From an uncultured Pirellulaceae bacterium (GTDB lineage Bacteria; Planctomycetota; Planctomycetia; Pirellulales; Pirellulaceae): a stretch of DNA of 64,000 nucleotides. A program made the translations under genes and the position numbers. The stretch is taken from contig CAYNJG010000004.1 in NCBI GenBank assembly GCA_964397295.1, forward strand, positions 8,302 through 72,301, written 5' to 3'. Within the stretch, counting starts at the first letter, position 1. Each line of letters starts with the position of its first letter. Below, piece after piece: positions 12,128 through 51,588 of this stretch. Below the pieces are notes generated by a model that was not told where the DNA came from, did not search any database, and saw only the letters and a list, made by a program, of their open reading frames with translations.

Positions 12128-12212
12128 AAAACACAGAGGCACGGAGATCACAGAGTTTGAGAAGGCCGAATGAGAGCCTTCTCTGTGTCCTCCGCGCCTC
12201 TGTGTTTCAAAA
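12128..12212. repeat. Palindromic REP/MITE-like element, full copy
   Basis: The arm AAAACACAGAGGCACGGAGATCACAGAG is inverted as CTCTGTGTCCTCCGCGCCTCTGTGTTTCAAAA around a ~25-nt loop. It lies directly 3' of the GxxExxY pseudogene stop. Related copies are at 12638-12670 and 48384-48461. Confidence 0.8.
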
Positions 12213-12637: not shown

Positions 12638-12670
12638 TTTTTGAAACACAGAGGCACGGAGATCACAGAG
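12638..12670. repeat. Half copy (one arm) of the same REP/MITE-like element
   Basis: TTTTTGAAACACAGAGGCACGGAGATCACAGAG is near-identical to the left arm at 12128-12155. No matching right arm follows. Confidence 0.7.
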
Positions 12671-12954
12671 TGAACCATTCGGTCGGCAATAAAACGAAGA
12701 GACGTCGTTTCCTGAGAAAGACTGTAATGGAGTGGCTCGAACCCAACGGTTTCTTGCGGGACCGATTTGGTGCCCTGACTACCCATTCGCCATCCGTTCG
12801 GTACGATCCTTTCGTGGCTTCATCTAGCTTATTGACCGGGCTAATCGAATTCGTCTAGAGTTTGGAAAAGCGAGCAATCGCCATATGCTTTTCTTAAAGA
12901 GACAATCAATCACAGAGTTGCGAAATCGTTGTCGCTTCTCGCAAGGCAGATTAA

Positions 12955-41796: not shown

Positions 41797-44700
41797 TTAG
41801 ACCCAAGAATCACATAGTATGGCGGCTTGCTCCAAAACTAGCTTTACGGCTTCGTCTTGCAAGTCTGGCGGATACCCATGCTTCTTTAGAATCCGCCTTA
41901 CTATCACCCGGATCTTTGCACGTGCTGACTCTCGAAGCGTCCAGTCAATGGAGACATTGGCTCGGACCTTCATAACAAGCTCGGTAGCGATCACCTTTAG
42001 CTTGTCCTCGGTTAATGCTTCTACCGCTGTGTCGTGATTTGCCAGCGCGTCATAGAAGCAGACTTCATCATTGTTGAGGCCCAGCTGCTCACCACGAGCT
42101 TCAGAGGCTTGAATGTCTTTCGCCAATCTTATTAGCTCGTCGATGATCTCTTGTGTCGTTATGGCTCGGTTGTGGTAGGAGTTCAGCGTAGCCTGTAGCA
42201 TCTCGGCAAAGGATCGTCCTTGAACAATGTTCTTCTGCTTGCGGATCTTGATCTCATCGTTGAGCAATTTGCGAAGCAACTCTACCGCAACATTCTTGTA
42301 GGGCATGCTGCGTACTTCGTCGAGGAATTCATCCGATAAGATAGAAATGTCAGGGCGTTCAACTCCGGCGGCGGTGAATACATCGATCACCTCTTCGTCT
42401 GCCGAGATCACAGCTTTCGCGACCAGTTGCCGAACTGCGTAGTCCAGCTGGCTTGAAGACTTACCGTTGTCGGTGTACTTCCGAAACATGGTGCGGATGA
42501 TTTGGAAGAACGCCACATCTTCCTTGATCGATTCGGCATACTCTTCGGTCGGACATAGAGAAAACGCTTTGGATAAGTTGCCTACAATTGCGTTCCAACG
42601 TGCTTTGCCGTCTTGCTCGCCAAGGATGAAGTCTTGTCCCGCTTGAAGCAACGTGATTCGCTCGGCGGGAGTTCCGGTTGTCCATTTCGACCAATCGAAT
42701 CCATGCAGTATGTCGCGGCATTGCTCGTGGTGTTTACGCAGGGCTTCGAGAGCTGCCTCGGTATCAATGGTGGTCTGCCCCTGTCCGCCACTGTCCGTGT
42801 ACGTCTTCAGGGCTTTCTTTAGCGAATCGCCGATCCCAAGATAGTCGACGACCAATCCACCCGGCTTCTCTTTGAAGACACGATTCACACGAGCAATTGC
42901 TTGCATCAGACCATGGCCTTGCATCGGCTTGTCGATATACATCGTGTGCATCGACGGAGCATCAAAACCGGTCAACCACATATCGCGGACGATCACCAGT
43001 TTGAAGTCGCTGTCGGCTTTTTTGAAACGAGTCGCGAGTGCTTTGCGGCGATTCTTGCTGCGTGAATGCTGCTGCCATTCCGGTCCGTCATCCGCCGACC
43101 CTGTCATGATGATCTTTAACGCTCCCTTTTCGTCATCTTCATCGTGCCAATCGGGGCGAAGTCTAATCAGCTCGTTGTACAGGTCCACACAAATACGGCG
43201 GCTCATGCAGACGATCATGCCCTTACCTTCGATGCCTTCCGCCTCCATTGCATCGCATCGCTTTTCGAAGTGATCGACCAGATCCTTAGTCATCACTTCT
43301 AGTCGATTGTCATCGCCAACCATCGCTTCAAGCGCTGCCCACTTGGCTTTTACCTTGGTGCGTACCGTTTCTTCGGCACCCTCGGTGACTTCTTCAAACT
43401 CCTCGTCGATCGTCTCAATGCTGGAATCATCCAACGCCATCTTGATCACGCGACTCTCGTAGTAGATCGGAACGGTCGCTTTGTCATCGACAGCTCGCTG
43501 GATGTCGTAGACGCTGATGTAGCCTCCGAAGACGGCTCGGGTGTTCTTGTCGTCAAGCTCGACCGGTGTCCCAGTGAAACCAATGAACGACGCATTGGGT
43601 AAGCCATCGCGGATATTACGAGCGAATCCATACGCGATCGTCTCTTCGCCCGTTTCCTTGTTCTTCTTTTTGCGAGCCGTAAAGCCGTATTGGCTTCGGT
43701 GGGCCTCGTCTGCCATGACGACAACGTTTTTGCGATCAGTCAGGACGGGAAACTGCCCTTCCGCTTCCGCGAACTTGTGGACGGTCGTGAAGATGACACC
43801 ACCAGAATTGACTTGAAGCAGCTCACGCAAGTGGTCTACCGAATCAGCTTGAATCGGAGTCTGCCGTAGGATCTCACTGCAGCGTTGAAACTGGCCGAAC
43901 AGTTGATCGTCCAAGTCATTGCGGTCGGTCAGTACAACCAACGTTGGATTGTTCATCGCTGGTGAGGAAATCACGAGACCCGAATAGAAGAGCATCGTGA
44001 AGCTTTTGCCGCTGCCTTGCGTATGCCAGACAACACCGACCCTTCGGTCACCTTCTTCTTGTGTCGCTTCGATAGTGCGTTGAAGCGCTTGTCGAGCTGC
44101 GTGGAACTGATGGTAACCGGCAAGAATCTTGTAGACGCGATCGCTGTCTGTATCGTCCTCGAACAACACAAAGCTCTGTAGCATATCGAGGAAGCGTTGC
44201 TTGTCGAATACGCCCCGAATCAGCGTTTCCAATTCGAGAATACTGGCGACCGGTTCTTCGGTATCGATCGTCGGCCAAGTTTTGAACCACTCTGGCCCGG
44301 CTGTGAGCGATCCAATCCTTGCCTTTTGACCATCGCTCGTAACGAGTACCTCGTTGTAGGTTAGCAGCGTTGGCAATTCCTTCTTGTACGTTTGCAACTG
44401 CTTGAACGCTTTTTCGACCGTAGCCGTTTCATCGCCGATATTCTTTAGCTCAATCAGCGCCAACGGCAAGCCGTTTACAAACACGACGACATCAGCCCTT
44501 CGCTCGTTTCGTCCCTCTTTTACCGTGAACTGATTCAACGCAAGCCATTCATTGTTCTCTGGTTGGTCGTAGTCGATGAGTTTTGCGATCTGACCGCTGA
44601 TCGTGCCATCGTCACGTTTGACTTCGACAGGTACACCATCACGCAACAGCTTGTGAAAGTTACGATTGGCGGCAATCAATGACGGTGAGTCGATGCGCAA

Positions 44701-44919
44701 CACTTGCCGCATCGCTTCGTCGATATCGTCCGACCCGAGTTGCGGGTTCAAACGTCTAAGAGCGGTTTCCAAACGCTCAATCAAAACAACGTCGTTAAAC
44801 GAGTCTCGTTCTGCGTTGTCGCCGGAAGGTGCGATCTCGGGGCCATAGAGCGTCTCGTATCCTAGTTCCTCGAACCAAGACAACGCGGCTTCTTCGACGG
44901 TGGCTTCGTTAATCGTCAT
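41797..44919 (-). CDS. hsdR: Type I restriction enzyme R subunit
   Basis: The start is taken at [22 protein letters not shown] (44919). Walker [14 protein letters not shown] box [11 protein letters not shown], motif FTGTP and a long C-terminal helical domain typical of HsdR. Confidence 0.95.
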
Positions 44920-45845
44920 CAATCTAGCTCCGTTGTGTCTTCTTCGGACGCTGCCGATTGTCGATAGTCGAGCCCCGCATCTTGCCAATCTGCATAAGTC
45001 CTGCCGTCCGAAAGCTTCCATCGCAACCGACCGTTGCTATTTCGTCCGGCGACGACGGCCGCTGCAGCGCTTGGACTGCTAAAGGGTATGTCTTCGACGA
45101 AAACCAAATACTCAGGGTCATCGCTATCAACGAGCTTCTCATCGGCAACCAGTTGCTCGCGAAGTTTTCGATACGAGGTCCAGGAATCAACTCCTGCTTT
45201 CTGGCTGTACTTCCTTTCAGAACGACAAACTCATCGTCCATCAATACCGCGTTCGCATCTGCCCCAGCTACATGACATTCGAAAACTGGACTGGTCGATT
45301 CTGTTGACTTTTCGCTGGTCGAAATCATTGGTCGCGGATTCAGGAATTGGTGTCCAAGTACAGGCAAGATCATTTGAACCTGACTAAGAAAGAACTCCAT
45401 ATCAGCGACATCTGGCTCAGGGAGAGGTGGGGGAGAATGAGCTGTTCCATTTGCAATGGAGGCTCGGCTTCGCTGTGTTGCACAGATTGATCAGTCGGCT
45501 TTCCAAGTATCGAACGTGGGACTTCGTGAGATTGTCGTCCTTGCTGGTAATCAGAATAACACGCGTGAAGAAGTCTTTCGCTTCGTCGCTATCGTGCTTC
45601 TTGATGCGAGTGAAAACGTTGTCGCCCTCACCAATGTAAACGCGATCTTGTGAGGGCGATTCTGGATCAGAGCCGATTAACAGATAAATGCCAGTGCGTT
45701 TCGCTTCGTCGCGTTTGCCGAGTTCGGCAAGTCGTGACCTTGGCGCAACTACGACCTTGCCCGTCCAGTTGATGATTTCGGCCGTCAGGATGCCACTAGG
45801 CACGCCATCGGCGAGGTACAGTCGAATCGTCTTACCCGTCATCAT
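44919..45845 (-). pseudogene. GIY-YIG nuclease / DUF4357 accessory gene, disrupted by two frameshifts
   Basis: Three ORF-track pieces (45417-45881, 44924-45400, 44919-45107) join into one protein when the frame is shifted near 45468 and near 45190. GIYLLIG..VYIGEGDNV lies N-terminally and [28 protein letters not shown]-terminally. Confidence 0.8.
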
Positions 45846-46092
45846 GGCAATCTCCCGTTGTCTTGTCTGTGTCCCGTTCATGGCCCCTTTCTGTTAGCAC
45901 ATAACGGACTCCAACGCCGGTCGTCCCGTGCTTGTCGAAGATGCCTTTTTCCACAAGTTCTGACAGCTTCTCGAATTGGAACACCGTGAAGAACTGCGAC
46001 AGCAGCGGATCGCTGCTCACGTAATCTTTGACGCGATTACGGAACTCCTGAAGTTCCTTCTGAACGCTGCTGATGAAGATCTGCCGACTCAT
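45832..46092 (-). pseudogene. Collapsed remnant of a DUF4062-type ATP-binding/wHTH accessory gene
   Basis: MSRQIFISSVQKELQEFRNRVKDYVSSDPLLSQFFTVFQFE (DUF4062-like N-terminus) runs directly into ..LVEKGIFDKHGTTGVGVRYVL (C-terminal wHTH-like tail). The several-hundred-aa middle expected for such proteins is missing. Confidence 0.5.
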
Positions 46093-46314
46093 GGTGTTAA
46101 TCTGGTGAACCTTCGTTCTGTCCCGTGTCTCCAACTGCTGGCATGTGTCCAATGAAACACGAACTTCCCCCAAGATTCACGCTCGATCCGAATTACGTCG
46201 ATATTGCGGGCTGTGTTAATTTAAAAAACAGGGTTGGCAACCTATACGCTTGATTGTTAGGCTCCCGTGACCGATACTTGAAACAACTCATCTGCCATGT
46301 GTAGAAGGAGTACC

Positions 46315-46338
46315 GAAGCCGTCCCTTGGGGCGGCTTC
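46315..46338 (-). terminator. GC-rich hairpin immediately 3' of the 166-aa gene
   Basis: GAAGCCGTCCC-TT-GGGGCGGCTTC starts 7 nt after the stop at 46345. No U-tract. Confidence 0.45.
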
Positions 46339-46344
46339 AGCTGT

Positions 46345-46845
46345 TTACGGGGTGTATTCATCTCTTTCTTTTCGCAGTTTTCTCTTCCGAGACTCCTCGG
46401 GTGTGCAGTACGCGGTTATGAACTGCAGGTATTGAAATCCATCACGTTGTCTGGTCCGTTCGGCTAGCACCACAAGATATCTTTCGGCAAACCAAAACAG
46501 AACGTGTGTGTTCCGTCCTCTCTGGTTCTTCCACACGTTGATCTCACCAGCAACGCCTGCATTGTCGATAATTGCTCTTGGCCAAAGGATGCGTTCGCAC
46601 CGTCTCATTTCCGGCGTGCGTTCTTCTTCGTTTGGCCCTTCAGACATGCAATGCCAAAACCCTGCGAACTTCCCGTCGTACATTGGATCGCGACGACAAC
46701 GGATCCATTTACCTTCAAATTGTGGTTGGCTGTCAATCATGCTGTTTTTGAATGCATCGTAAATAGCAGCTAAATAAAGCGCCCAATCTCCGTCGAAGTC
46801 TTCGAGTGTGATTAACTCAGGCAACCATGTGTTGTCGTCACTCAT
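46345..46845 (-). CDS. Hypothetical 166-aa protein, partner of the DUF3800 gene
   Basis: The start is taken at MSDDNTWLPELI (46845), 8 nt after the DUF3800 stop. No motif recognised. Cys/His/Trp-rich patches (FWHCMSEG, RRCERILWPR). Confidence 0.6.
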   Translation of the reverse strand: MSDDNTWLPELITLEDFDGDWALYLAAIYDAFKNSMIDSQPQFEGKWIRCRRDPMYDGKFAGFWHCMSEGPNEEERTPEMRRCERILWPRAIIDNAGVAGEINVWKNQRGRNTHVLFWFAERYLVVLAERTRQRDGFQYLQFITAYCTPEESRKRKLRKERDEYTP

Positions 46846-46853
46846 GGGAAGCC

Positions 46854-47552
46854 TCAGCGCGATTGCCAGACGAGGAGGTTGAGTTTTGGCTCTCGAAGCC
46901 ACGTTGATCGTTGCAGCGAAAAGCCCGTCCGCTCTCGAACCCTTTCTATGAGCGCCAATTTTGCCGCGCTTGTTTGCAGTCCGCGATTGGAATACGTAAC
47001 AGCCCCAATTAGCAAGTCTGCCAACTGCATCAACTCCGATTCGTGAGATCGAATCTGCTGGACACGCCGGACAATGTTCCCATTGCCATCGTAGTTGGCA
47101 TCTCGAAGGACTTCCTCTAGTTTTTGGCGTTTCCCCTCGCTACGAGTGTCCTTGATGTCCAAATAGATCGAGTAGTGTTGCGTGGGGTCGATAATTGGCT
47201 CCAGCAGCGTGAAGCACATTTTGTAGTACCAATCGTCGTGCGTTTGGTGAAAGCGGTTGTGTTCCAACTGGGTCTTGTCGGGAACGACTATGCATCGAAA
47301 ATGCAAGTCGTCGTCATCAAGAAAGTAGTCAATGATCGCCCGGTAAAAGTCGAGTTTTGCTGGAGAAACTTTTGTCCATTTGAACTCGAATTGAGGTGAC
47401 AACCCATGAGACTTTTGTATGTCGCGAACTCGAATCGAGATCTCGCGAGCCTTCTCTTCGGGGCACCAAATAGCGCCCAGAGTCATGGGTTTGATTCTGT
47501 CGTGCTCCAAGTGACAACTTTCGTCGAGGTAGACATTAAACGACTCAGCCAT
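46854..47552 (-). CDS. DUF3800 domain protein
   Basis: 232 aa with an N-terminal FNVYLDESCH (DES motif) and a C-terminal ELMQLADLLIGAVTY (QxxD motif). These are the two signatures I associate with DUF3800. Confidence 0.7.
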   Translation of the reverse strand: MAESFNVYLDESCHLEHDRIKPMTLGAIWCPEEKAREISIRVRDIQKSHGLSPQFEFKWTKVSPAKLDFYRAIIDYFLDDDDLHFRCIVVPDKTQLEHNRFHQTHDDWYYKMCFTLLEPIIDPTQHYSIYLDIKDTRSEGKRQKLEEVLRDANYDGNGNIVRRVQQIRSHESELMQLADLLIGAVTYSNRGLQTSAAKLALIERVRERTGFSLQRSTWLREPKLNLLVWQSR

Positions 47553-47731
47553 TTGCGAGGGCCTCCGAGGTGACGGTGAGCAAATAAAATGCGAACGGTG
47601 AATGGTGAAGAGTGAAACTTTTCAACCTCATACGTTTACCCTTCTCTCTTCAACCTTCACCTTTTTTGTCTCGCCGGTTAGAAACTTAGCAATGAGCGTG
47701 TTGCGAATCAGCGGTAAGGAGACCATTTTCA

Positions 47732-48253
47732 TTACCCCCACACGATATAGGCTGGATTCACGGATCGCCCGCACTGCGTGCAGGTGGGTTCGCTGGCGGT
47801 GACGGTGCCTTTCTCGCAGTGGGGGCACAAGTCGTTGTCGAGTAGCCACATGACTTGATCTCCCATGCTGACGCCACATTCGGGGCAGGTTGGGTTGCGG
47901 TCTTTTGCATCCCAACGCCCCCAGCAGTCAGGGCAATGGTCGTGGGGGACGATGCTGAGCTGGCCGTGGACGACGTAGCGGTGCGGGGATGAGTCGCCCC
48001 AACATTGGCGCGCAGGCGATCCGCTATTGGTTGCGAGACCGGTTTGTAGCAGCGGTAGGCTCTTTTCTCGCTCCTCGTCGAAAACCTGAAGGCTGATGTC
48101 GAGCGTCAACGAATACGGCTCTCCAAGAATCCGACTGATTTCGGCCAGCTTGGCTTTGAGTTGATCGAGTGTTTCACCTTCGATCAACTCACTCACCTGC
48201 TCGGAAATGTCGTCGATGAGGGGATCGATTTGTTCAAACTCATTCTTTTCCAT
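47732..48253 (-). CDS. Double zinc-ribbon protein with acidic helical N-terminus
   Basis: 173 aa with CPDC-12aa-CPEC and CPHC-11aa-CTQC. The start lies 3 nt after the stop of the hsdS relic frame. Confidence 0.6.
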   Translation of the reverse strand: MEKNEFEQIDPLIDDISEQVSELIEGETLDQLKAKLAEISRILGEPYSLTLDISLQVFDEEREKSLPLLQTGLATNSGSPARQCWGDSSPHRYVVHGQLSIVPHDHCPDCWGRWDAKDRNPTCPECGVSMGDQVMWLLDNDLCPHCEKGTVTASEPTCTQCGRSVNPAYIVWG

Positions 48254-48256
48254 GTT

Positions 48257-48379
48257 TCATCCTTCAACCTTGCACACTGGCGAGGGCCTGAGCGCGGCGG
48301 GGACAGGCAACTCGTCGGAAAGAAGCGTGGGTAGCAGCGTGTTGCGAAGGGTGCCCAGCGTCGAGGACGCTTGCGCGGA
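48257..48379 (-). pseudogene. Relic of an hsdS 3' end (distal conserved helix)
   Basis: It translates to [29 protein letters not shown]. The C-terminus of the intact HsdS is [30 protein letters not shown]. Same orientation, separated by the REP element. Confidence 0.75.
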
Positions 48380-48383
48380 CCTA

Positions 48384-48461
48384 TTGAAACACAGAGGCAC
48401 AGAGGACACGGAGTCTCGCATGCGACATTCCTCTGTGATCTCAGTGCCTCTGTGTTTCCAA
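48384..48461. repeat. Palindromic REP/MITE-like element, full copy
   Basis: The arm TTGAAACACAGAGGCACAGAGGACACGGAG is inverted as CTCTGTGATCTCAGTGCCTCTGTGTTTCCAA around a loop containing TCGCATGCGA. It lies 22 nt 3' of the hsdS stop. Confidence 0.8.
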
Positions 48462-48482
48462 ACGTTTTGTCGGCTCATGCCA

Positions 48483-49871
48483 CTACTTCCTGTGTGCGGT
48501 GAGGGCGGCAGGGACGGGCAACTCGCCGGAGAGAAGCTTGGGAAGCAGCGTGTCGCGAAGGGTGCTCAGTGTTGAGGACTCCCACTCGTTGGCGTCCATG
48601 CGTTTGAAGATGCCATCAACCAGTTCTCCAAACGCATCAAATACCTCGTCGCTCGGTTTCACAAACGTTATTTCGTTCATGCTTCGTTGACTTAGCTTGG
48701 GAATTGTTGACCCAGTGAGGTAGCCGCTGATGTCAGTTGCTCGAAGCGTGAACATCAAGAATCGAGTCACGCCATCGTGGTCGCCCGAAAGAACATGGGC
48801 GTGGTTGTTTACCCAGAACCTTCCTGTCGCGCGAAACGCGATCGGTGTGTTTCTCGTTCGTAGGTTCTCGCCATCTTCGGCGACGAGCAAATACTCTCCG
48901 TCGTAGATGAATTCGTTAACGTGATCGACGACGCCCGACGCTCCGTAATACGGATATGGTCCAGCCACACGATCCTTTCCTTTGACCGGCTGCCGCAACT
49001 TGTCGTGGTTGTTCGCAAAGTCCCCGAGCCGAACAACTTCCCAGCCCGTTGGAATCTTGCCGAGGTCGGAGTCTTGGAAGGTGGAGGGGAAAAGAGCCGA
49101 GAGGGAAGGTGGAAGGGTGAAGGGCGAATACGCGGGCGAGGAATCGGGGGAAAGGTCGCGAGGGGGCGGCGAGGTCGCCGTGGCGGCTCCGGTTCCCGAT
49201 GGCGGATTGGCCTGCTGGCCACTCTTGCTGCGCACGGGGTCGAAATCGACGAACCAACTCTTGAAGATCGCCCGCGCAAGGGACTCCAGCGTCGCATTCA
49301 TCCGACGGTTCAACTCGATCTTGTCGTCCAACGCACCAAGGATCGACGCGATCGCTCGCTGTTCTCCGATGGGAGGCAGCTTGAACTTGAATGCTTCGAT
49401 GCGTTTTGGAGCGGTGTGCAGGATTTTCGTCCCAGTCGCACCAACGTACAGCTCGCGATTAAATTCCGACCAAAGGAAAAGCCAGTAAAGAAAGTCGGGA
49501 TCAACGGCATCGGCTTCCTTGACGACCACTTTACCGAGACGTTGGTTGTGCAAATAAGTTCGACCGTCGTCGGGTATGCGGCCCGGAATTCCAAGAATTT
49601 CTCCGCCTGCTGTCTGGCACGTCATTACTAGCAGAATGTCTCGCGGTTTCAGGTCGTATTCGGCGGGATAGTCTTCGCGATATTCTTTAACCGTCGTTGA
49701 TTCAAAACGAAACCCGCCGGTGTATTGAAAGTTGCCGATGTTCACGACGATCGGCTTGCCCGAAAGGTCTTCAGAAAAGAACTTGCTCTTGAACGGCCAG
49801 CCATGGGTAATGCTGACGACATCGCCGAGCATGACTTCTCGCCATTTTCCGTTTGGCGACTCATCCGCCAT
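48483..49871 (-). CDS. hsdS: Type I R-M specificity subunit
   Basis: The start is taken at [13 protein letters not shown] (49871), overlapping the hsdM end by 11 nt. Two target-recognition domains are separated by the central helix ([50 protein letters not shown]). The distal helix is at the C-terminus. Confidence 0.9.
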
Positions 49872-51588
49872 AGCCCAACGCCTCCAGATTGGACTTGATG
49901 GCTTCCTCCAAACGCGACGACTCCTCGAACTGACCGCCAAGCTCGCCGACCAAGCGACGCATCTTGTCCTCAAACGGCTCGCCGTCGTCCTCGACTTCTT
50001 CCGCTCCCACGTAACGGCCCGGCGTGAGCACGTGGCCGTGTTCGGCGATCTCGGACTGCGTCGCACTTTTGCAGAAACCGGGGATGTCGGAGTAAGTGTC
50101 GAGTGACGAGTTGCGAGTGTCGAGCAGAGGGTTCTCTTGCCACGCGTGGTAGGTGTCGGCGATGCGGGCGATGTCGGCGCCGGTTAGCTCGCGGTGGACT
50201 CGGTCGATCAGCGTGCCCATTTTGCGGGCGTCGATGAACAGAGTCTCGCCTTTCCTGTTTCGGAATCCCTTGGCGGCTTTGTCTCGTGTCAGGAACCACA
50301 GGCAGACCGGAATCTGCGTGCTGTAAAACAACTGACCGGGCATCGCGACCATGCAATCGACCAGATCGGCTTCGATGATCTGGCGGCGGATGTCGCCTTC
50401 GCCCGACTGGTTACTGCTCATGCTGCCGTTGGCCAGCACGAATCCGGCCGTGCCCGTCGGACTGAGATGGTGGATGAAGTGCTGCACCCATGCAAAGTTG
50501 GCGTTGCCTTTGGGAGGCGTGCCGTATTTCCAACGCACGTCTTCTTCGTTGCGGTGCCAGTCGCTGTCGTTGAACGGCGGATTGGCGATGACGTAGTCGG
50601 CTTTGAGGTCTTTGTGCAGGTCGCGGCGGAAGGTGTCGGCGTGCTCTTTGCCAAGGTCGCCGTCGATGCCGCGAATCGCAAGGTTCATCATCGCCAGACG
50701 TCGAGTGGTGGGGTTGGATTCCTGACCGTAGATGGCGATGTCGCCTTTGATTTTTGGAGCGGCGGTTTTTCCTTTGCCCTTCTTGCCGTTTCCATTGCCG
50801 GAGGCGTGGGCTTTGATGAACTTGTCGGCCTGGACGAACATACCTCCGCTGCCGCACGCCGGGTCGTAGATGCGGCCCTTGTACGGGGCCAGCATTTCCA
50901 CCAGCGTGCGGACGACACAACTGGGCGTGTAGAACTGGCCGCCTTTCTTGCCTTCGGCGGATGCGAATTCAGAGAGGAAGTATTCGTAAACTCTACCGAG
51001 GATGTCTTTGGAGCGATGGGCAGTTTGTGCGTCGGACGGCGTTGTCGAGTCGCCGTCAGCGTCTGGCTTAGCGATCATCTCGATGGTGCCGATCAAGTCG
51101 ATCAGCTCGCCGAGTCGCTGCTTGTCGAGTGCCGGCCGAGCGTAGTTTTTGGTGAGCGTGCCTTTGAGCTTCGGATTGTCCCGCTCGATGGCATCCATTG
51201 CGTCATCGATCAGCTTGCCGATTGTCGGCTGTTTTGCGTTGTTCTGTAGTTCCAGCCAGCGAGCTTCCTTCGGAACCCAGAATACGTTTTCGGCTCGGTA
51301 CTCGTCGGCGTCCTCCGGATCAGCTCCTTCATACTCGCCTTCGCCAGCGACGAGCTTCGCGTGGTGCTCATCAAACGCATCGCTGATGTACTTGAGGAAG
51401 ATCAGCCCAAGCACAGTGTGCTTATACTCGGCGGCGTCCATGTTGTTGCGAAGTTTATCCGCAGCTAACCAGAGCTTGGCTTCAAAACCAAGATTTGCAG
51501 TAGTGTCCTTCTGTTTCTTGGTGCTGGGCTTCTTAGTTGCTGCCTTCTTCTTGGTTGCTTTTTTCTTAGCTGCCTTTTTCTTGGCCAT
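49861..51588 (-). CDS. hsdM: Type I R-M N6-adenine DNA methyltransferase subunit
   Basis: 575 aa with an HsdM N-terminal domain ([25 protein letters not shown]), motif [11 protein letters not shown] and motif [11 protein letters not shown]. An unusual Lys/Ala-rich N-terminal tail is present. Confidence 0.95.

Follow-up and report, generated by a model that had tools for sequence, protein, structure and literature searches.

An orphaned hsdS 3' end left as a scar of recombination within a mosaic type I restriction-modification locus of a planctomycete

In the window analysed here, a stretch of 64,000 nucleotides of planctomycete DNA, a type I restriction-modification (R-M) locus carries a second, degenerate copy of the 3' end of hsdS, covering its final ~30 codons, between the intact gene and the zinc-ribbon (Zn-ribbon) gene that follows it. 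This arrangement raises the question of how the copy was orphaned, and whether it records the event that gave the locus its present specificity. The locus is mosaic and holds a genuine recombination scar, whose structure, age and possible origin are considered below.

The features of the locus are collected in Table 1. Translation of hsdS starts at an ATG at 49871, overlapping the hsdM stop, and not at the GTG of the ORF track; its stop codon occupies 48483-48485. The same 462-aa product is called in the identical assemblies, and Pfam Methylase_S (PF01420) matches it in two stretches (E 3.9e-28), indicating two target-recognition domains (TRDs). Together with the conserved CR1 and CR2, the former lying with the P/S-rich linker at 49025-49370, and the operon context with hsdM and hsdR, these domains identify the product as HsdS. 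The cargo between hsdS and hsdR comprises the Zn-ribbon gene, a DUF3800 pair and a GIY-YIG remnant; its order varies among related loci, and homologues of the Zn-ribbon protein (at least 56% identity) sit between hsdS and hsdR in planctomycete type I R-M loci. Among the ORFs of the hsdS-hsdR interval, Pfam scans revealed no recombinase domain, and neither a sigma-70-like promoter nor an intrinsic terminator was found within 47500-48700.

Table 1. Coordinates of the features of the type I R-M locus within the window
Feature	Position	Strand	Basis
hsdM, type I methyltransferase, 575 aa	49861..51588	-	ORF; HsdM_N/N6_Mtase gene calls in identical assemblies
Intact hsdS, 462 aa: TRD1, CR1 + P/S-rich linker, TRD2, CR2	48483..49871	-	Pfam, gene calls
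Working (upstream) copy of the 80-nt CR2 repeat, in hsdS	48500..48579	-	local alignment
hsdS private tail (..TAHRK*), stop, spacer	48459..48499	-	alignments; no counterpart in L022
73-nt hairpin repeat, perfect 15-nt terminal inverted arms	48386..48458	-	fold and arm pairing
73-aa ORF across hairpin and relic, not a gene	48257..48478	-	no homologue, no Pfam match
17-nt spacer between hairpin and relic 1	48369..48385	-	also in L090, where it has 3 substitutions
Relic 1, decayed CR2 copy	48289..48368	-	alignment to working copy
Old hsdS tail + Zn-ribbon ribosome-binding region	48254..48288	-	same as L022 except deletion
Double-zinc-ribbon gene, 173 aa, embedded cargo	47732..48253	-	Pfam DZR_2/DZR
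Relic 2, older CR2 remnant, mini-ORF MVSLPLIRNTLIAKFLTGE..	47628..47726	-	after Zn-ribbon gene; CR2-like part 47670-47723
hsdR, 1074 aa, closes the locus	41797..45021	-	HSDR_N/ResIII gene calls

The repeated hsdS end and its junction with the zinc-ribbon gene

The two segments were aligned at nucleotide level, as the preliminary description of this DNA had proposed, and its central observation, an hsdS 3' relic behind the working gene, was borne out. Relic 1 lacks a TRD and aligns with the working CR2 over 80 ungapped nucleotides, in the same orientation and at a spacing of 211 nt, with 69 of the 80 positions identical (86%, the first estimate of roughly four-fifths being slightly low). The local alignment score of 105 compares with a mean of 16.1 (sd 2.4) and a maximum of 26 over 500 shuffles, and a tblastn search with the locus's own hsdS tail recovers relic 1 at E 8e-11; the peptides originally quoted for the relic and the intact gene were likewise confirmed. 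The two copies are separated by 131 nt of tail, filler and hairpin. The private tail and its spacer are common to the window and a second metagenomic locus, L090, which carries an 8-nt indel there.

The former role of the relic is apparent from the metagenomic locus L022, the hsdM of which shares 84-87% nucleotide identity with that of the window. In L022, the relic-1 sequence is still part of a working hsdS, whose stop lies 10 nt ahead of the Zn-ribbon ATG. Relic 1 is an orphaned hsdS 3' end, consisting of the distal conserved helix CR2 and the tail, and is orthologous to the sequence that still forms the working end of hsdS in L022. The upstream CR2 remained in service, differing from the L022 CR2 at only 3 of 78 sites, and the downstream copy drifted roughly neutrally: relic 1 differs from L022 at 10 of 78 sites (5 synonymous, 5 non-synonymous) and the L090 relic at 7 of 78 (2 synonymous, 5 non-synonymous), with the loss of 13 nt in the window and 9 nt in L090. 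Relic 1 combines the features of a pseudogene remnant, namely similarity to CR2, an orthologous working hsdS end and relaxed constraint, the last judged from small substitution counts. It probably has no present function; its only likely effects would be to keep hsdS and the Zn-ribbon gene apart by a long, structured stretch, and to provide an 80-nt, 86%-identical direct repeat that could mediate a 211-nt deletion.

The relic frame had been reported to stop 3 nt before the Zn-ribbon gene, from which direct coupling of the ancestral hsdS to that gene was deduced. The observation is correct for the window, where the frame ends at TGA 48257-48259, ahead of the ATG at 48251-48253, but this is not the ancestral spacing, since it results from a lineage-specific 13-nt deletion at 48288/48289. 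The ancestral stop is the TGA at 48264-48266, 10 nt before the ATG, and the coupling itself is upheld by the L022 hsdS and the L090 relic, both of which end in ...SEALASVQG* at that distance; the tail of the L090 relic has an independent 9-nt deletion, without that of the window. Beyond the 13-nt gap, the window and L022 are 95-98% identical for 180 nt, and then 65-82% identical within the Zn-ribbon gene. A foreign origin of the relic, considered on account of its 87% identity to L022 against 95-98% in the next 180 nt, was rejected, since the contrast can be accounted for by neutral decay of the relic and constraint on the ribosome-binding site and the 5' coding end of the Zn-ribbon gene.

The hairpin element and the 73-codon reading frame

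Between hsdS and relic 1 lies a palindrome that the preliminary description placed at 48384-48461 (78 nt), immediately 3' of the hsdS stop, and regarded as REP-like. The palindrome is real and downstream of hsdS, with narrower limits and at a measured distance of 24 nt from the stop: the perfect 15-nt arms (GAAACACAGAGGCAC / GTGCCTCTGTGTTTC) bound an element of 73 nt at 48386-48458, and looser pairing reaches 48379-48465. Its RNA fold has an energy of -47.6 kcal/mol (z = -3.9), without the T-run of a terminator. No Rfam family corresponds to it, the only hits being sub-threshold noise, such as a plant miRNA model that scored 25 bits where the gathering score is 150.

Members of this hairpin family, 73-89 nt long with sharply defined ends, occur at about six loci in the same genome (a 7.9-Mb draft), one of which holds a full and a half copy, and in 4 of the 40 relatives searched. 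In being extragenic, non-coding, dispersed hairpins with sharp inverted termini, here just past a stop codon, they resemble REP/BIME elements and MITEs. The assignment to classical REPs nevertheless fails on size and copy number (about 20-40 nt and tens to hundreds of copies). As to a RAYT gene, 7 Y1_Tnp matches exceed the Pfam cut-off in this fragmented assembly; none of them adjoins a hairpin copy, the nearest being about 4 kb away on C207. Among the features of MITEs, terminal inverted repeats of at least 15 nt are present and the flanks are often TT...AA, whereas no consistent target-site duplication is visible. The flanks of the other copies are unrelated to the filler at the hsdS locus. 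As the family already has members in this genome and in some related ones, the hairpin need not have been brought in with a donor hsdS, as had been proposed.

The 73-codon ORF that spans the hairpin and relic begins 4 nt past the hsdS stop. A protein search returned only the ORF itself, with no Pfam match; between the window and L090, its hairpin-encoded part shows 1 synonymous and 5 non-synonymous changes, and its C-terminal frame differs. The earlier view of this ORF as an artefact of palindrome plus relic therefore stands, given the absence of other homologues and the mostly non-synonymous changes. For annotation, it should not be called a gene, hsdS should end at 48483, and the Zn-ribbon gene should be recorded as formerly coupled to hsdS.

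Age of the scar, older relics and competing explanations

L090 dates the scar. It is a 1.4-kb metagenome scaffold in which the junction of hsdM with TRD2 may stem from a deletion or from chimerism. Its Zn-ribbon protein is 96% identical to that of the window, the order CR2-hairpin-relic-Zn is the same, and the segment from CR2 through tail, hairpin and relic to the Zn-ribbon gene is 92.7% identical over 887 nt. Because both loci hold this order, the scar predates their split. L090 nevertheless carries a different TRD2 end, and hence at least one TRD2 exchange followed the scar; in all, three different TRD2 ends (window, L090 and L022) are joined to a nearly identical upstream CR2. Comparison with related loci, as suggested beforehand, thus had a divided outcome: L022 supplied the pre-event junction, and the idea that the relic marks a swap to the present allele, and with it a change to the present specificity, was contradicted by L090. 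The scar is older than the present DNA-recognition domains of hsdS and is not a record of its present specificity. TRD exchange as such does occur in the locus family, the window and L022 being 96.8% identical at nucleotide level in CR1 plus linker and 95.8% in CR2, with unrelated TRD1 and TRD2. Among full-length HsdS homologues, identity does not exceed 52%, and matches sharing one TRD reach only 62-73%. As regards a donor, exact-pattern scans of metagenome and genome contigs gave 0 matches for either the private tail/filler junction (TGGCATGAGCCGACAAAACGTTTGG) or the tail-Zn junction (GCCAGTGTGCAAGGTTGAAGGATGAA).

A second, older remnant lies past the Zn-ribbon gene, and relic 1 is therefore the youngest scar of a nested series. 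Relic 2 is also a direct repeat without a TRD, matching the working CR2 at 30 of 38 nt (tblastn with the locus's own hsdS tail, E 0.011), and has counterparts behind the Zn-ribbon gene in L022, L023/L024, L028, L031, L090, L091 and L092. Same-strand hsdS-tail relics past the Zn-ribbon gene are thus found in eight loci including the window, and past other cargo in L101, where the relic follows an unrelated 437-aa gene. In L028, a unit of a 100-aa gene plus CR2 is duplicated around the Zn-ribbon gene, and L031 has a Zn-relic-Zn arrangement. The relic-2 copies open with ATG, and in L022, L023, L091 and L092 their stop overlaps the ATG of the next gene, an overlap that is the hallmark of a former hsdS end. 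They are 53-77% identical to one another at nucleotide level. When they were examined for concerted evolution or independent insertion, they proved only marginally closer to the hsdS of their own locus than to that of others (77% against at most 74%; 73% against at most 71%). Most of these cases probably descend from one ancient event, which reduces the independent events to about 3-4. In the window, both relics start no further than about 10-17 nt from the TRD2/CR2 boundary, suggesting that homology defined the joint.

When 30 loci were each scanned with their own hsdS tail, 6 same-strand downstream matches were obtained at E <=1e-6 and none as strong on the opposite strand. Relics were confined to the Zn-bearing group and L101, about 20 other loci having none; the process is therefore occasional and not a rule. 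L105 and L119 gave weak matches, which are similar to a motif at the C-terminus of the window's own hsdR.

Several explanations of the scar were weighed. Chance similarity or an assembly artefact has the shortness of the repeat in its favour and nothing else; the score of 105 against a shuffle maximum of 26 leaves chance next to no credence, and assembly error is excluded, as the region is 100% identical in three independent metagenome assemblies, namely ENA ERZ23487491 (BPAM22-1, SAMN08954306), ERZ27295569 and SRR7595370, and the arrangement is conserved in L090. It is also very improbable that the relic ORFs are functional, either as relay mini-ORFs bridging the distance between the hsdS stop and the following start for ribosomes, or as free CR2-helix peptides modulating HsdM/HsdS assembly. 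Such roles would fit the position of the 73-codon ORF, which begins just past hsdS and whose end is 3 nt away from the Zn-ribbon ATG in the window and 10 nt away in L090, as well as the ATG starts of relic 2 and its stop overlapping the next ATG in L022, L023, L091 and L092. Relic 2 of L091, however, contains an internal stop, the relic peptides are poorly conserved (53-77% nucleotide identity among copies), changes are mostly non-synonymous, no homologues exist among annotated proteins, and the stop/ATG overlap is merely carried over from the former hsdS end.

A single allelic replacement could have introduced the hairpin along with the present hsdS or its 3' part, leaving the relic as the footprint of present specificity. 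The contiguity of relic, hairpin and private tail, the evident TRD exchange in the locus family and the pre-event junction in L022 all accord with it, but we regard it as quite unlikely: in L090, tail, hairpin and relic are identical in kind and the TRD2 end is different, so that the present TRD2 in at least one of the two lineages postdates the scar, and a hairpin family resident in the genome and some relatives may have inserted on its own. Local tandem duplication of CR2 and tail by slippage or unequal crossing-over, followed by insertion of a resident hairpin, would involve no foreign hsdS and leave specificity unchanged. Relative to the L022-type CR2, the ancestral relic shows changes at only about 6 of 75 sites, in a near-neutral pattern, as expected of two initially identical copies of which one then decayed, and the hairpin is a dispersed element with sharp ends. 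This scenario is nonetheless unlikely, as it leaves unexplained the 37 + 17 nt of non-hairpin filler, to which the flanks of other hairpin copies are unrelated, and the new tail ACACAGGAAGTAG; moreover, the relics found in L028, L031 and L101 lie next to complete genes, favouring insertion or exchange over slippage.

The explanation preferred here combines an orphaned hsdS end, the gain of a block of about 211 nt, a later TRD2 exchange and recombination anchored in CR2, and is, taken as a whole, probable. The block, which combines another CR2 copy, a short new tail that carries a stop codon, about 54 nt of filler and the hairpin, came in front of the old hsdS end in the common ancestor of the window and L090, and TRD2 was exchanged at least once thereafter. 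CR2 would have served as the recombination joint, because it is the sole stretch common to all hsdS alleles beside the variable cargo zone. Recombination with its anchor in CR2 or upstream of it may have added blocks consisting of an hsdS 3' part and the sequence behind it, either through allelic replacement with one non-homologous end or through single-crossover integration of an excised CR2-bearing segment, and every such event would displace the former hsdS end downstream and leave a relic. For the second route, a 211-nt circle is implausibly small, and a larger, later-lost cassette would be needed. Against this explanation, the exact-pattern scans yielded no donor allele with private tail and hairpin but without the relic.

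The scar is real and ordinary in kind, one of several nested hsdS-tail scars that surround embedded cargo. A broader proposal, that the hsdS distal-helix region acts as a portable homology arm capturing and moving cargo cassettes among type I R-M loci, is doubtful, if conceivable; were it true, each capture would move the former hsdS end downstream, and a nest of same-strand CR2 relics would then mark off the embedded cassettes and preserve the order in which they arrived. This would explain how genes become embedded in type I systems and provide a sequence signature of the process.

Relation to known systems

A new working end, with the original displaced downstream as a direct repeat, is also produced by genomic islands at gene 3' ends (tRNA/dusA; PMC4482086). 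Unlike such islands, the present locus has no integrase, only 131 nt between the repeats, and 86% identity in place of identical att cores.

Phase-variable type I loci hold silent hsdS' copies with TRDs in inverted orientation, which switch specificity by inversion. An extra TRD-bearing inverted copy is not found in the window, where both relics are direct and without a TRD. Streptococcus pneumoniae SpnIII/ivr and the Mycoplasma loci (REBASE survey, PMC7394358) share with the window the presence of more than one hsdS-derived segment per locus; in contrast to those loci, the copies in the window are direct, TRD-less and decaying, and all that their recombination with each other could produce is a 211-nt deletion.

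TRD shuffling and allelic recombination of type I hsdS have been described as 'domain movement' in Helicobacter pylori (PMC3077401), and the passages searched in a preprint on Xylella fastidiosa hsdS alleles report clean exchanges and partial or fragmented alleles (bioRxiv 10.1101/2022.09.01.506293), the word 'remnant' being absent from its text. The locus studied here resembles such shuffling in using the conserved regions flanking the TRDs as recombination sites, CR1 and CR2 being 96-97% identical and the TRDs unrelated; it differs from the exchanges described there in the orphaned direct CR2 downstream of a working gene and the nested older copy past a cargo gene. By itself, it is one more trace of the plasticity of hsdS through recombination, which is well known.

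Genes embedded in type I R-M operons include PrrC and TgvAB of Vibrio cholerae VPI-2 (bioRxiv 10.1101/2024.04.04.588119), and embedded genes have been surveyed by 'guilt-by-embedding' (bioRxiv 10.1101/2024.01.29.577857); the route of cargo entry is not discussed in that survey, whose text contains 'recombination' and 'hsdS' 0 times. Like these operons, the window carries cargo between hsdS and hsdR in an order that varies across related loci; some cassette boundaries in this locus family are marked by CR2 relics. If the pattern were confirmed by a systematic survey, such relics would be a simple guide to where defence cassettes embedded in type I R-M operons begin and end and to how old they are relative to one another, and would point to homologous recombination at CR2 as the route of embedding.

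The hsdS-tail repeat

All relevant features in this type I restriction-modification (R-M) locus lie on the minus strand of the window, which belongs to contig C4 of a draft genome (7.86 Mb, 455 contigs) and whose genes have homologues from Pirellulaceae and other Planctomycetota. Three ORF pieces just upstream of hsdR resemble, by eye, one frameshifted GIY-YIG/DUF4357-type gene; Pfam gave no match for them.

Features of the R-M locus (in gene order) and members of the hairpin family (C numbers, other contigs of this genome)
Feature	Position	Strand	Remark
hsdM	49861-51588	-	first in gene order
hsdS	48483-49871	-	462 aa; ATG overlaps hsdM stop
Pro/Ser-rich linker of hsdS	49025-49200	-	low complexity, about 60 residues, between CR1 and TRD2
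Repeat copy in hsdS	48500-48579	-	working copy
Private hsdS end (..TAHRK), stop	48483-48485	-	between repeat copies
Spacer, 24 nt	between hsdS stop and hairpin	-
Hairpin, 73 nt	48386-48458	-	between repeat copies
Spacer, 17 nt	between hairpin and relic 1	-
Repeat copy in relic 1	48289-48368	-
Region in question (repeat, hairpin, relic 1)	between hsdS and Zn gene	-
Double-zinc-ribbon (Zn) gene	47732-48253	-
Relic 2	47628-47726	-	mini-ORF directly behind Zn stop
GTGAAG-rich hairpin	47597-47667	-	downstream of relic 2
DUF3800 gene and partner ORF	46345-47552	-
ORF fragments, GIY-YIG/DUF4357-like	44919-45881	-	by eye; no Pfam match
hsdR	41797-45021	-	last in gene order
Hairpin family, full and half copy	window 12128-12208 and 12643-12675		435 nt apart, downstream of large ORF; 12643 is half element
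Hairpin family member	C58:32886-32974		internal tandem duplication of CACAGAGGCACGGAGGT unit
Hairpin family member	C108:16240-16307
Hairpin family member	C207:2596-2680
Hairpin family member	C257:3445-3516

Behind the intact hsdS lies a second, diverged copy of its distal conserved helix (CR2) in the same orientation (relic 1), as the preliminary description, made from the sequence alone, had noticed. The nucleotide alignment it proposed yields a direct repeat of 80 nt, ungapped, with 69/80 identities (86%) and its copies 211 nt apart, scoring 105 against 16.1 ± 2.4 (maximum 26) in 500 shuffles. Since the window is matched at 100% identity, over up to 9.7 kb, by three assemblies made from other samples, the repeat region is no assembly accident. 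That description's observation is confirmed, and its interpretation partly supported.

The hairpin and the 73-aa ORF

The hairpin between the copies has perfect 15-nt terminal arms and an RNA fold of -47.6 kcal/mol (z = -3.9), with no Rfam family match and no T-run after the stem. Its family shares termini (GAAACACAGAGGCAC...GTGCCTCTGTGTTTC), varies in the loop, measures 73-89 nt and occupies five other loci in this genome, with flanks unrelated to one another; the 15-mer occurs in 4 of the 40 relatives searched. No Y1 transposase gene adjoins any copy (seven matches in the genome exceed the Pfam cut-off). The hairpin is a low-copy dispersed element, placed like REP sequences but differing from them in size and abundance; the "REP-like palindrome" first described, given there as 78 nt, holds as a 73-nt structure but not as a classical REP. 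As the family is resident in the lineage, the hairpin need not have arrived with a donor hsdS, and its import by recombination, as earlier proposed, is not required.

The 73-aa ORF had been dismissed as an artefact, rightly on present evidence: the protein search returned only itself, Pfam gave no match, its hairpin-encoded part differs from that of L090, a related scaffold, by one synonymous and five non-synonymous substitutions, and L090 has another reading frame at the C-terminus. Judged on these features, it is not a gene.

Origin and age of relic 1

Homologues of the Zn-ribbon protein number about 30, with Planctomycetota as the source of almost all; those with at least 56% identity are encoded in the hsdS-to-hsdR interval of type I loci, and more distant ones elsewhere. 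In the related locus L022 (Zn protein 82% identical), the hsdS end is followed by 10 nt and the Zn ATG. Relic 1 aligns with this end minus 13 nt (ACCGCCACCTCGG), a loss that shifts its frame, so that the original stop is TGA 48264-48266. Its frame now ends at TGA 48257-48259, 3 nt ahead of the Zn ATG as first reported, but this spacing is secondary; the claimed ancestral coupling of hsdS to the Zn gene stands on L022 instead. Relic 1 was formerly the end of an hsdS coupled to the Zn gene and is now orphaned. Against the L022 CR2, the working copy differs at 3/78 positions (two synonymous, one non-synonymous), the L090 relic at 7/78 (two and five) and relic 1 at 10/78 (five and five); the counts, though small, fit a copy that was cut off when near the L022 type and has since drifted neutrally.

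Past the 13-nt gap, identity to L022 is 95-98% over 180 nt and then 65-82% within the Zn gene, a drop that marks a recombination breakpoint. A reading of the relic as imported and the working CR2 as resident was dropped, because the relic's differences fit neutral decay and a constrained ribosome-binding site and Zn coding sequence explain the high identity of those 180 nt. Elsewhere the two loci are mosaic, with hsdM at 84-87%, the central conserved helix (CR1) plus linker at 96.8%, working CR2 at 95.8%, hsdR at 69%, and both target-recognition domains (TRD1 and TRD2) unrelated. The Pro/Ser-rich linker, seemingly unconstrained yet about 97% identical in nucleotides, suggests a recent exchange of the CR1 block.

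The window's closest relative, L090 (a 1.4-kb scaffold; Zn protein 96% and partial hsdM 96.8% identical), has the same order of CR2, private tail, hairpin, spacer, relic, Zn gene and second relic (92.7% over 887 nt). Its relic tail carries an independent in-frame 9-nt deletion rather than the window's 13-nt one, so the common ancestor's relic kept the full L022-type tail. Its TRD2 end upstream of the working CR2 (..APVDLQSAFTDLIEPFWAQHAKNERESL..) differs from both the window's and L022's. The duplication therefore arose before the window and L090 diverged, and TRD2 was exchanged at least once after it. Relic 1 thus predates the split, and the earlier view of it as marking a specificity-changing swap survives only for the orphaned end, not for the TRD2 exchange. 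In L090:1-500, hsdM breaks off at the position corresponding to window 50175, and the end of a different TRD2 follows within 157 nt; this may reflect a deletion of about 1.6 kb that takes in most of hsdS, or a chimeric scaffold.

Nested relics and known systems

A nested, older CR2 remnant (relic 2) reads MVSLPLIRNTLIAKFLTGE..; in its core, 30/38 nt are identical to the working CR2. Behind the Zn gene, far more recognisable counterparts occur in L022 (MNSITLNTLRNTLAPKTCSTEMPAPTALTTSEALA, then a stop), L023/L024 (MESLMTSPLRDTLFPNLLSSESPVPATLTAAEEALE, then a stop), L028, L031, L090, L091 (with an internal stop) and L092. In L022, L023, L091 and L092 the relic stop overlaps the next gene's ATG, the arrangement to be expected where an hsdS end was once coupled to the gene downstream. 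In L028:560-2200 a unit made up of a 100-aa gene (MKVRLEIQFESPTA..) and a CR2 relic is duplicated, with one copy on each side of the Zn gene; in L031:157-860 a CR2 relic lies between tandem Zn-ribbon genes. In L101, from another genus, hsdS is followed by a 437-aa cargo gene, and a CR2 relic (E 1.6e-8) lies between that gene and the next. Scans of 30 loci of the family, each with the tail of its own HsdS, gave six same-strand downstream matches at E 1e-6 or better, none at that threshold on the opposite strand, and none in the about 20 loci without a Zn gene adjoining hsdS. Such relics are recurrent but occasional, and most relic-2 cases probably trace back to a single old event.

At the 3' side of the Zn gene, the window's GTGAAG-rich hairpin (GGTGAAGGTTGAAGAGAGAAGGG...CACTCTTCACC) has a similar counterpart at L028:1660-1745 (-32 kcal/mol) that follows the Zn gene there; the 3' border of the Zn cassette may thus hold a structured element that is conserved. 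Cargo order differs between L026:2368-7445 (hsdS, DUF3800 pair, Zn gene, hsdR) and window 44000-49900 (hsdS, Zn gene, DUF3800 pair, GIY-YIG remnant, hsdR), so the Zn gene and DUF3800 pair move independently.

CR2 borders the variable cargo zone and is the only sequence there that every allele shares, so it would serve as the joint for recombination. In the window, each relic starts close to the TRD2/CR2 boundary (within about 10-17 nt), which suggests a homology-defined joint, as a random illegitimate end would need to land there twice. Three routes are candidates for the scar: the allelic replacement originally proposed, homologous at its left end and non-homologous at its right; single-crossover integration of an excised CR2-bearing segment, most of the insert being lost later; and local tandem duplication followed by hairpin insertion. 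No donor hsdS emerged from exact-pattern scans of metagenome and genome contigs or from a full-length HsdS homologue search, and no source was found for the 54-nt filler (37 + 17 nt) around the hairpin.

A phase-variable inverting system is ruled out, the copies here being direct and without TRDs. Nested direct hsdS-tail relics bounding embedded genes were not found described in the portions of the literature searched, and the pattern is worth a systematic test. Genes embedded in type I operons are established (bioRxiv 10.1101/2024.04.04.588119; bioRxiv 10.1101/2024.01.29.577857), the latter survey not discussing the insertion route, as is TRD exchange via conserved regions of hsdS (PMC3077401; bioRxiv 10.1101/2022.09.01.506293). 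In kind, the scar is an ordinary recombination scar of a mosaic hsdS locus.
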